Source of the DNA: a virus
Lineage: Duplodnaviria; Heunggongvirae; Uroviricota; Caudoviricetes
DNA length: 33,113 nt
Reading direction: 5' to 3' (one strand)
IMG/VR virus record: IMGVR_UViG_2879770953_000003
Every line of letters begins with the position of its first letter. The first letter of the stretch is position 1. This document shows, one piece after another, positions 6,001-9,000 of the stretch. The position numbers are program-made.

Positions 6001-9000
6001 GGCCAACGCCCATAATGCGTGCACTGGCGCGACATCCGACGCCATTCATGGCCATATCAATGATTTTCTGGTGCGTACCGGGCTGAGAGGCGGTGTAAGT
6101 GAACTGTAGTTGCCATGTTTTACGGCAATGAGAGCAGAGATAGCGCTGATGTCCGGCAGTGCTTTTGCCGTTACGCACCACGCCTTCAGTAGCGGAGCAG
6201 GAAGGACATCTGATGGAAATGGAAGCCACGCAAGCACCTTAAAATCACCATCATACACTAAATCAGTAAGTTGGCAGCATTACCAGGGCGGTAATGAAAA
6301 TGACTGAATTAACAAAAGAACAATTAATCGAAGAAGCCAAATTAAAAATAGCGATTACGAAATGCCACCCCAATTCAGGGATGGCGCGAGTAGAGGGCGA
6401 GTTATTCAAAATTGCACGGGCATCGCTGGAAGCAGAGCCGATAGCGTGGCGATATCGCTACGTGAAAAAAGGTGTTATGGACTCTCAGGGGGAGTTGTGG
6501 GTTGGTGACTGGAAATATGTACCGAAAAAAGAGGATTGTAACGACAGGCCGAACTATGAAATTCAGGCCTTATTCACTGCCCCACCAGTCCCGGTTACAT
6601 CAGAAGAACTGGTTAAAGCTGTGCACTTTTATGAACAACTAAAACGCGAAAATCCACCAGCATCCGGCAACCAGATTAATGGGTTAACTATGTCGGTTAA
6701 ACGACCAGCCAACTGAAAAAGCGGAAACCTGATTATAGGTTGCCAGATAAGGCAATAAGCTACCTGGCGCGGAACGGACTGATAAGTATGGGGAATGTTT
6801 TACGATGAGTATTTAGACTAAAGAGTTTGTAACGCTATGTAAGTGATTTTTTCTGGTTTAGATATTTATATGTCCGGCCAAATTGAGGTGTGTTTAAATG
6901 TTATTGCACATTGATTGTAGGGGGAATAATGAAAAACGCATTGCAGTTTTTGTTTGTTGCGTTCTGGTTGTTCGCATCATGTATGCCCATCATCTTCACA
7001 GCAAGGTATATGGAAAAAATTGATGTTTTGATATTAATGTTTGGACATATAAATGCCCTTTTTTTAGGGGTGTTCATGGCGGTCATGTGCATTGAATACT
7101 GGCGGTAAATACAGCGAACGCTATTGGTTTAGTTGGATATTTACTGTGCCGGACAAAAACGGTTTGCAGGGAAATCTTAGTTAAGTAGAATGACTGCGGG
7201 TGCTTGAGGCTATCTGTCTCAGGCATGAACACCAAAAGGCAGATAGAGAAAAGCCCCAGTTAACATTACGCGTCCTGCAAGACGCTTAACATTAATCTGA
7301 GGCTCAATCCATGCTGAACACATGTAGGTTAGCCTCTTACGTGCCGAAAGGCAAGGAGAAGCAGGCTATGAAGCAGCAAAAGGCGATGTTAATCGCCCTT
7401 ATCGTCATCTGTTTAACCGTCATAGTGACGGCACTGGTAACGAGGAAAGACCTCTGCGAGGTACGAATCCGAGCCGGCCAGACGGAGGTCGCTGTCTTCA
7501 CAGCTTACGAACCTGAGGAGTAAGAGACCCGGCGGGGGAGAAATCCCTCGCCACCGCTGATGTGTCAGGCATCCTCAACGCACCCGCACTTAACCCGCTT
7601 CGGCGGGTTTTGTTTTTTCTGGTCGTTCTGGTTTACAATCCATCCGTCAGCCTGAACAACTGGCACCTGCTGCGCCAGCAGAGAAAACAGATGGCGCACG
7701 ATACCAAATTTTACAATTCGGATAACTCTGCCGCCCCTGCCAGCAGGCACGGGCGGCGTTCTCATGCATTCAAATCTGACTGGTATCAGCACGACCCCTG
7801 CACCGAAGAACAGGCTGAATGGCTGATTCAGCGCTACCGCAGACACGGATACGAGATTAAGAAAGCCCTCAGTCTCGATTATCGTCACTGGATAATCTTC
7901 GTCAGGCTCCCTTATTCCGAACGGCCACCGCGTCCGTCCTGCACATTCCAGCAACGGATCTGGAGGTAATGTGCGGGTATTACTTCGACCTGTTCTGGTT
8001 CCGGAACTCGGGCTGGTGGTCCTTAAGCCAGGCCGTGAATCCATGCCGGTATTCCACAATACCCGGGTACTGGTGGAGCCGGAACCGAAAAGCATGCGTA
8101 ATCTGCCGTCCGGGGTCGTTCCTGCCGTTCGCCAGCCGCTGGTGGAAGACAAAACATTGCTGCCGTTTTTCAGTAACGCACGGGTGATTCGTGCTGCTGG
8201 TGGTGCTGGCGCATTGTCTGACTGGCTGTTGCGCCATATGAAATCCTGCCAGTGGCCACACGGCGATTATCATCACAGCGAAACCGTCATTCACCGTTAT
8301 GGTACCGGCGCAATGGTGTTGTGCTGGCACTGCGACAACCAGTTGCGTGACCAGACATCCGAATCACTCGAGCAACTTGCTCATCAAAACCTGTCAGCAT
8401 GGATGATTGACGTCATCGGTCACGCAATAAGCGGTACGCAGGAGCGTGAATTATCTCTGGCTGAATTATCCTGGTGGGCGGTCCGCAATCAGGTGGCGGA
8501 CGCGCTACCGGAAGCGGTATTACGTCGTTCGCTGGGGTTGCGTGCGGAAAAAATCCGCTCAATGTACCGTGAAAGCGACATCGTGCCGGGAGAGCAGACC
8601 TCCACCAGCATACTGAAGCAGCGCACAAAAAATCTTGCGCCGCTGCCTCACGCCCACCAGCAACAGAATCCACCACAGGAAGAGACGGTGGTCAGCATTG
8701 CCGTTGATCCGGAATCTCCGGCTCAGTATCTCCAGCGCCAGAAACCACAACGGGAAGAGATGCCTGTATACACGCGCTGGGTAAAAACGCAGAAATGCAT
8801 GACGTGTGGCAATCAGGCAGATGATCCGCACCACATCATTGGTCATGGACTGGGAGGGATGGGAACAAAGGCTGACGATTTGTTTGTTATTCCGCTGTGT
8901 CGTAAATGCCATAACGAACTACACGCCGGGGTAAAAGATTTTGAAGAAAAACACGGTAGTCAGTTGTTGTTGCTGATTCGTTTTTTAATGCACGCGAGAA

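Follow-up and report, generated by a model that had tools for sequence, protein, structure and literature searches.

A putative two-helix membrane protein gene in an AT-rich cassette between a decaying nin-region gene and hok in a lambdoid prophage

T4 Imm, P22 SieA and lambda SieB are small phage-encoded membrane proteins that block superinfection, and the class II holins, or pinholins, are two-helix phage membrane proteins of ~60-70 amino acids. Type I toxins usually cross the membrane with a single helix, and in Hok that helix is joined to a Cys-containing C-terminal extension (PMC12648545). The lambdoid morons, such as bor and lom, are independent accessory cassettes (for the concept, see PMC3594210). 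Here we analyzed a stretch of 33,113 nucleotides of Caudoviricetes DNA (IMG/VR record IMGVR_UViG_2879770953_000003; hereafter, the window), in which an open reading frame (ORF) of 59 codons, denoted ORF2 (6929..7108, plus strand), lies between a 140 amino acid reading frame, ORF1 (6294..6716, plus strand), and a hok/sok locus (7198..7523, plus strand). The initial annotation had proposed that ORF1 and ORF2 form one candidate accessory module. We hold, with slightly more belief than doubt and blending stronger with weaker parts, that the interval contains two unrelated things set side by side by recombination. ORF1, of the modular lambdoid nin-region family PHROG 660, would be an allele in decay, with an in-frame deletion of 30 codons and with a 4-nt frameshift that took away the conserved C-terminal module. 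ORF2 would encode a 59-residue inner-membrane helical hairpin and would have an AT-rich cassette to itself, an insert that separates the hok/sok promoter from the end of the PHROG 660 gene.

Like type I toxins of the Hok/Gef family (PF01848), the predicted ORF2 product is small, hydrophobic, of the inner membrane and prophage-borne, and its gene is adjacent to hok in the same orientation. It differs from Hok in having two helices and essentially no periplasmic tail. The two are unrelated in sequence; ORF2 gives no HOK_GEF match, whereas the neighboring 70 amino acid mok/hok frame scores 1e-22 in Pfam and also matches PHROG 251. A mok-like leader ORF, a sok-like antisense RNA and fold-back mRNA elements, which belong to the Hok system, were not detected for ORF2. 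With the superinfection-blocking proteins ORF2 shares short length, integral membrane character, phage or prophage origin and the lack of an enzymatic domain; unlike them, it matches no PHROG, Pfam or PADLOC model and is located in the nin region beside hok, not in the immunity region. The ORF2 cassette resembles the lambdoid morons as a discrete insert of deviant composition (36% vs ~50% GC) between genes that are adjacent in relatives, with boundaries at gene ends, whereas the promoter and terminator of their own that define morons were not found for ORF2 by consensus scan. Length and two transmembrane helices are also common to ORF2 and the class II holins. This assignment was rejected, since the lysis genes of the related prophage L001 (holin, RrrD, spanin) lie downstream of Q, whereas ORF2 lies upstream of hok in the nin region and has no PHROG lysis match.

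Close relatives alone left the coding status of ORF2 undecided; the decisive evidence is a second subfamily, here denoted the paralogue (proteins P0162 and P0167, 59 amino acids), found by an exhaustive HMMER and profile search. ORF2-type and paralogue sequences have identical length, start and stop and share 44% identity over all 59 residues. Identity by codon position is 0.58/0.71/0.49, highest at position 2 and lowest at position 3, and the ratio of non-synonymous to synonymous divergence (dN/dS, Nei-Gojobori method, NG86) is 0.19, with dS saturated. When the 72 observed nucleotide differences were placed randomly in 20,000 simulated replicates, start, stop and open frame were kept in 0.28% of them, and the observed BLOSUM62 score of 162 (59 +/- 17 in the simulation) was reached by 0 of the 601 stop-free replicates. 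These comparisons of the two subfamilies show that ORF2 evolved under protein-level constraint.

ORF2 consists of 59 codons and a stop; it starts at an internal ATG of a longer ORF that opens with GTG (6890..7108). The motif AGGGGG (6919-6924) stands 4 nt ahead of the ATG, within a Shine-Dalgarno-like AGGGGGA (6919..6925, plus strand), and a natural variant, G6922A, converts it to GGAGG. In the paralogue the counterpart CAGGGA stands 7 nt ahead of the ATG, so that a Shine-Dalgarno-like motif is found in both subfamilies. An in-frame TAA located 18 nt 5' of the paralogue's ATG led us to reject the 72 amino acid form starting at the GTG. A minus-strand ORF (6901-7092), annotated in phage PhiR42_1, was likewise discarded, as the paralogue does not conserve it.

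Kyte-Doolittle hydropathy of ORF2 revealed two hydrophobic helices, the grand average of hydropathy (GRAVY) being 1.2-1.4 across the subfamilies (1.2 for ORF2). An AlphaFold2 model, built with both subfamilies in the input, places helices at residues 2-24 and 30-58 with a short loop between them, at a mean predicted local distance difference test score (pLDDT) of 72. The paralogue has a positive RK at its N-terminus and acidic E26 and E30 in the loop; by the positive-inside rule, these residues indicate that both termini are probably cytoplasmic (N-in/C-in) and that residues ~25-32 form a short loop in the periplasm. The two subfamilies do not differ at 19 positions, which include W13, S17, C18, P20, I21, I22, T24, L36, F38, G39, N42, A43, L44, E56, W58 and R59. 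Each helix carries conserved residues that are small or polar, as would suit helix packing, either with itself or with another membrane protein. The GC content is 37.8% for ORF2, compared with 44.7% for ORF1 and 50.4% for the whole window. The description of ORF2 in the initial annotation, an AT-rich small two-helix membrane protein with a Shine-Dalgarno sequence, thus agrees with composition, the AGGGGG motif, hydropathy and the modeled helices, and we are confident that ORF2 is a real gene for such a protein.

ORF2 gave no match in Pfam, NCBIfam (E <= 1), PHROG, PADLOC, Rfam or the PDB sequence profiles. In PADLOC-DB v2, 0 families were found at E <= 1 for ORF1, ORF2, P0167 and the full-length ORF1 relative P0055. 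Foldseek comparison of the ORF2 model with BFVD and PDB returned only non-significant helical-hairpin matches (E >= 0.6). A third, more distant subfamily was found neither by exhaustive HMMER over 1.84 billion representatives nor by profile search, and pattern scans of one genome per species and of metagenomes recovered only the two subfamilies, both in E. coli/Shigella. GenBank already contains the exact ORF2 protein, submitted from Shigella flexneri, E. coli ATCC 25922 and other sources under the names 'membrane protein' and 'hypothetical protein'. Databases thus had the sequence before, though with neither a family nor a function assigned. Literature searches on the ORF2 peptide and on hok-adjacent small proteins found nothing specific. 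A CFT073 Ribo-seq preprint reports 15 intergenic small membrane proteins, several of them in genomic islands (SMP3, 7, 11, 14) (10.64898/2026.09.28.754932).

We examined how the DNA around ORF2 is assembled. A haplotype break lies at ~6795-6812; two deeply different haplotypes are found 5' of it, and 6813-7150 is nearly uniform. This mosaic boundary coincides with the end of the ancestral reading frame of ORF1, at 6808. In related prophages lacking ORF2, the ...DVLR stop of the PHROG 660 gene is joined to the hok promoter by ~90 nt of other sequence. A 35-nt stretch of the hok leader was used to select 120 IMG/VR loci; the ORF2 cassette is present in 26 of them, and in the remaining 94 homology to the window starts only at ~7151-7198. 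Based on the haplotype break, the cassette-less junctions and the hok loci, ORF2 sits in a discrete AT-rich insert, a separate mosaic unit of 36% GC (~6809..7150, plus strand), as the prophage alignment defines it. The insert always lies between the same two neighbors, neither of which requires it. ORF2 is intact where an insertion sequence (IS) cuts hok, and the paralogue is intact beside a C-terminal remnant of hok. The hok mRNA promoter-like site TTTGCA-17-TAGAAT (7163..7191, plus strand) belongs to the right-hand neighbor and is outside the cassette.

The slot 5' of the hok promoter holds other short reading frames elsewhere. In other lambdoid prophages, represented by IMG/VR loci L098 (a 13-member cluster), L110 and L197 and compared with L119, L107, L151 and L148, it contains different short hydrophobic ORFs, for example one of 34 amino acids, MSDDISLAMEGALAVVAVVGVYCLVVFLMDRLGN, and MWEVIVLVLKCALAIAAVMAIYCLAVVLMDRLSD. 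The ~90 nt that occupy the slot in cassette-less prophages read ...AGIAMAVALVVYSICRWG followed by a stop. None of these other slot peptides matched Pfam or PHROG. Small membrane peptides may thus be inserted here with some preference, the slot being a possible hotspot. A further feature of the cassette edge is a near-palindrome, TTTAGaCTAAAG, at 6813-6824, directly 3' of the stop of the upstream gene. Its counterpart at the paralogue (L209, ~5878-5890) is CTTCAGtCTGAAG, with a symmetric compensatory T.A to C.G change; with only two lineages the comparison is anecdotal. The near-palindrome could be an operator or a small hairpin.

Window-type ORF2 was detected in 1568 of 5426 complete E. coli genomes (~29%), using a query of 271 nt and always at >=95% identity, and the paralogue in a further 1045 of the 5426 (~19%), one carrier of the paralogue being ATCC 11775 (DSM 30083). 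The paralogue locus is a fossil island between ttcA and uspF (L209, 4984-7200; also L210-L216 and many E. coli), an interval that we take to be the Rac attachment region. The island contains an integrase fragment, AT-rich DNA, the intact 59 amino acid ORF, what is left of hok, and pieces of a sitD-like permease of the ABC-3 type. On the 5' side of the paralogue there is a trace of a gene end reading ...VLR and stop, and on the 3' side a 66-nt stretch that is 80% identical to the hokD coding sequence. In the 30 records listed, of the 1045 matching genomes, the Prokaryotic Genome Annotation Pipeline (PGAP) places no annotation within the 601-nt stretch around the paralogue ORF. K-12 has neither ORF2 nor the paralogue; its Qin prophage is without the cassette, and hokD is the sole match.

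ORF1 has a different history. In the PGAP annotation its start is 6300, the second ATG, and the protein has 138 amino acids (WP_005069274.1, hypothetical protein). This start has a better-spaced GGCGGT Shine-Dalgarno sequence than 6294 and is by sequence the likelier of the two. ORF1 matches PHROG 660 at E 6.3e-47, residues 1-139 aligning to profile positions 1-133 of 193, so that the C-terminal third is missing. PHROG 660 is a lambdoid nin-region family to which no function is assigned. The earlier statement that neither ORF was recognized as a known family stands for ORF2 and does not fully hold for ORF1. A secondary match to PHROG 60 is weaker (9e-15), and ORF1 has no match in Pfam, NCBIfam or PADLOC. 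A protein search retrieved 568 relatives (protein clusters), nearly all from E. coli and its allies. The relatives share an invariant core, AWRYRYVKKG...DWKYVP.KEDCNDRP.YEIQALF...FYEQ.K.ENPP, with swappable N- and C-termini, the N-terminal part being helical and variable.

Alignment with 26 relatives demonstrated that, against the longest of them (P0055, 201 amino acids), ORF1 is missing 30 residues between ENPP and DNPP, and that it ends aberrantly in ...VKRPAN. DNA alignment with four prophages revealed a 4-nt deletion after 6705 that shifts the ORF1 frame. The lost end, SQLKK...LP..A.SYLARNGLIS..VLR and stop, is still readable in another frame as an out-of-frame remnant of the ancestral C-terminal module (6707..6808, plus strand), which translates as SQLKKRKPDYRLPDKAISYLARNGLISMGNVLR and stop and corresponds to the C-termini ...VSQLKKAQPDCKLPEKAMDYLKRNGLISVEDVLR of P0055 and P0097. 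Whereas the relatives carry a C-terminal module ...LP..A.DYLKRNGLIS.EDVLR, the window ORF1 has neither that module nor the 30 residues. Intact PHROG 660 alleles of 171 amino acids, found in 24 IMG/VR loci, stop at the same position as the remnant (6808), and PGAP marks the ORF1 homologue as a pseudogene in L003 and L313. Because the missing C-terminus is readable out of frame and a 4-nt gap separates the window from four prophages, ORF1 is best described as a remodeled, frameshifted allele. We consider it highly probable that it is a decayed allele and not a partner of ORF2, and it is probably non-functional or only partly functional. An AlphaFold2 model of ORF1 had low confidence (mean pLDDT 55) and was not used, and a PDB sequence-profile search gave chance-level matches only. 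An identity as an Ead/Ea22-like protein (PF13935) was rejected; neither ORF1 nor three longer relatives had a Pfam match, and BLASTP found no similarity (E 1.8) between ORF1 and the neighboring L001 gene that carries this domain (2e-20).

To follow the fate of the three genes we sampled IMG/VR contigs holding an invariant non-coding 28-mer located 100 nt 5' of ORF2, a choice independent of the ORF itself. The anchored contigs share ancestry, and counts of disruption among them are thus not counts of independent events. ORF2 has its full 59 codons in 106 of 109 contigs; of the other three, two differ only through an indel 5' of the ORF that displaces it. The upstream PHROG 660 gene is full-length (171 amino acids) in 24 contigs and window-like in 16; in the remainder, which show at least seven further truncated forms, it is cut to 36, 40, 76, 84-85, 104 or 129 amino acids, or is missing. 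Overall the gene is disrupted in ~78% of the loci bearing ORF2. Of the 96 contigs in which hok could be evaluated, 27 lack it or carry a disrupted copy. Disruptive alleles being common in both neighbors but not in ORF2, the anchored contigs show that ORF2 stays intact while the PHROG 660 gene and hok decay, as read from their sequences.

We infer that ORF2 would be an accessory gene of benefit to the prophage or the host. Its product probably acts within the membrane through S17-C18-x-P20...T24 in helix 1, G39-H/Y40-x-N42-A43 in helix 2 and the invariant C-terminal E-x-W-R, and would self-assemble or dock onto a host or phage membrane protein. A membrane-acting accessory factor is favored because ORF2, an insert of deviant composition in a phage that is temperate, encodes a conserved helical hairpin alone and persists beside decaying neighbors; even so, we put forward an accessory intramembrane function only tentatively. 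That ORF2 blocks or aborts a superinfecting phage is our leading specific guess. Expression would probably depend on a weak AT-rich promoter or, in an intact prophage, on transcription that reads through from the early rightward operon. Since the early operon is gone in the window, expression there would need a weak local promoter or read-out from IS1.

Several observations weigh against this reading. The function of ORF2 is purely inferred: PADLOC gave no match, fold and sequence searches found no relative of known function, and the family is confined to E. coli/Shigella. The gene itself is predicted from sequence. A consensus scan, which would leave room for weak promoters, found no sigma-70 consensus promoter or intrinsic terminator flanking ORF2 in the window, and promoter and terminator counts at the paralogue locus are no higher than in shuffles. 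PGAP annotation under an ORF2-type or paralogue match is absent from all 90 records listed. Of the segregating sites in the ORF, 8 belong to the window type and 3 to the paralogue; all 11 are non-synonymous, and most are conservative changes (A/V, I/V, M/I, H/Y); assuming that ~24% of changes are synonymous, 0 of 11 is expected by chance at ~0.05. Variation within the subfamilies being shallow and all non-synonymous, recent polymorphism lends no support to purifying selection. Finally, a cassette copy at L087 2779-3266 (E. coli ECMA0423, CP178302.1) has 87% identity, 27 gap positions and several frame breaks, and is either truly decayed or part of an error-rich assembly.

ORF2 could alternatively be the membrane toxin of a type I toxin-antitoxin pair, a second killer beside hok that is silenced by an antisense RNA and damages the inner membrane on expression. 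It is shorter than 60 amino acids, has a GRAVY of 1.2, is AT-rich and prophage-borne and adjoins a bona fide type I locus, and the cassette RNA folds somewhat better than shuffled sequences (z -2.6). However, ORF2 has two helices, whereas a single transmembrane helix is usual for such toxins (PMC12648545), and neither HOK_GEF nor any other toxin family in Pfam matches it. No antisense promoter or terminator reached the scanner threshold, sok is the only Rfam element in 6200-8000, and the paralogue is intact in a decayed remnant without an evident conserved antisense gene. We therefore judge a toxin unlikely.

A somewhat weaker case can be made for ORF2 working with Hok, as a membrane partner, modulator or immunity factor, the real module then being ORF2 and hok. 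In both subfamilies the ORF lies directly 5' of hok, or of what remains of hok, in the same orientation and without a terminator in between, and other prophages place different short hydrophobic ORFs in the same slot. The cassette is nevertheless absent from 94 of the 120 hok loci with the same leader, and ORF2 is intact where hok is interrupted or a stump; hok is lost or disrupted in 27 of 96 contigs, against at least 106 of 109 with ORF2 intact. A partnership with Hok appears quite improbable on these counts.

Of similarly low credence is the boldest extension of the membrane-factor reading, namely that the hairpin family is a new prophage membrane effector tied to its hok-side position, either an exclusion/abortive-infection factor or a modulator of Hok-type pores, with the paralogue domesticated by E. 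coli and the slot serving as a hotspot for small membrane effectors. If this were true, domestication would be seen in the ~19% of complete genomes that retain an intact paralogue between ttcA and uspF, within the remnant of a dead prophage. Should ORF2 exclude phages or modulate Hok, it would be a new component of a classic system; otherwise it is one more prophage small protein. As matters stand, ORF2 is an addition to the familiar class of prophage accessory small proteins, and the find is modest. Small membrane proteins are systematically under-annotated, and the ORF2 family is an example, with ST131, ATCC 25922 and Shigella among its carriers. As one 180-bp gene with two natural subfamilies, it is a cheap target for work on small proteins and prophage functions.

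It is highly improbable that ORF2 is not a gene at all but an AT-rich non-coding spacer, perhaps H-NS-bound or regulatory, which is open by chance and conserved by recent ancestry. The missing PGAP annotation in all listed records, the lack of a detected promoter, the wholly non-synonymous polymorphism within clades and the conservation of the flanking non-coding DNA would fit a spacer. Against it stand a 44%-identical paralogue that has kept start, stop and a length of exactly 59 codons, its hydrophobic pattern of substitutions, which the simulation did not reproduce (0/601; open frame in 0.28%), and identity that peaks at codon position 2 and is lowest at position 3. ORF2 is also intact in at least 97% of anchored loci, whereas the neighboring gene is broken in ~78%.

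The least credible reading is the two-gene accessory module for exclusion or abortive infection: a PHROG 660-type gene or its C-terminal module does precede ORF2 in all 115 of 115 anchored loci with enough upstream DNA, but the proposal is largely refuted because ORF1 is decayed, the upstream gene being frameshifted in the window, disrupted in most ORF2-bearing loci and a PGAP pseudogene in L003 and L313, while PHROG 660 genes, with 568 protein clusters, are far commoner than ORF2 and in many cases stand immediately beside hok, a recombination boundary (6808) separates ORF1 from ORF2, and neither has a PADLOC match. ORF1 turned out to be clearly homologous to a known phage early-region family, and ORF2 lacks neither conservation nor a translation signal. 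What is retained of the initial proposal is a conserved, translatable ORF2 on an AT-rich cassette of accessory type directly 5' of hok; the pair is given up. The picture of the locus is corrected in this respect, with ORF1 as a decaying allele that is no partner and with defined mosaic boundaries.

The order of elements in 5517-7523 is, from left to right, IS1 on the minus strand, ORF1, a gap of 212 nt, ORF2 and the hok/sok locus, so that both ORFs of the ORF list are located between IS1 and hok as had been claimed. The 768-bp IS1 copy (5517..6284, minus strand; insA 5954-6229, insB 5532-6035 in the ORF list) forms the left edge of the interval. Within the hok/sok locus, the leader with the sok-complementary region occupies 7198-7373, where Rfam RF01794 (sok/hok leader) matches with 118.9 bits; mok extends over 7311-7523 and hok over 7368-7523. 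In relatives PGAP names this hok gene hokD. The left part of the window is the mtfA/tRNA-Ser (serU) attachment site, with the prophage integrase, an xis-like gene (DUF4224) and an exonuclease gene of which a stump is left (5188-5493); IS1 joins this stump to ORF1.

The undamaged arrangement was read from L313, which occupies the same serU/mtfA site, and from L001, which has an identical right arm. There the exonuclease gene (2.4 kb) is followed by ydfD, dicB, ydfCBA, the repressor, cro, a ydaT-like gene and replication genes, and then by DUF977, small nin genes, the ORF1 homologue, an unannotated gap, hokD, a 92 amino acid ORF, DUF968, RusA and Q. The 9-bp flanks of IS1 are unequal, catctaacg (5508-5516) and agggcggta (6285-6293), the target duplication is absent, and homology between the window and L001 resumes at 6285, the first base past IS1. 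As these flanks differ and the L001 homology starts at 6285, an IS1-mediated deletion that took out ~8 kb of the prophage early region fits the sequence comparison with L313 and L001, and the deletion noted in the initial annotation is real.

Further observations concern other parts of the window. On the plus strand, a 272 amino acid IS3-family transposase ORF (3628-4446), which we take to resemble IS2 orfB, adjoins a 151 amino acid N-terminal integrase fragment (4471-4926, minus strand); as the two abut, the integrase is interrupted as well, and the prophage is heavily decayed. Past the hok stop (7523), a sub-threshold Rfam match to isrK (7532-7613; 27 bits, gathering score 50) coincides with a terminator-like hairpin (7592-7609) and most likely reflects nothing more than the hok transcript's terminator. 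A conserved ORF at 7562-7969, located between hok and the DUF968 gene, matches PHROG 1212 (E 2e-33; the PGAP equivalent has 92 amino acids) and is kept in all five hok-bearing relatives examined (L001, L003, L004, L313 and phage PhiR42_1). Further downstream, a Q-antiterminator-like ORF (9386-10102) contains a tandem duplicated eight-residue unit (GGEGYEYQ VGGEGYEYQ), and its L001 homologue is flagged by PGAP as frameshifted.

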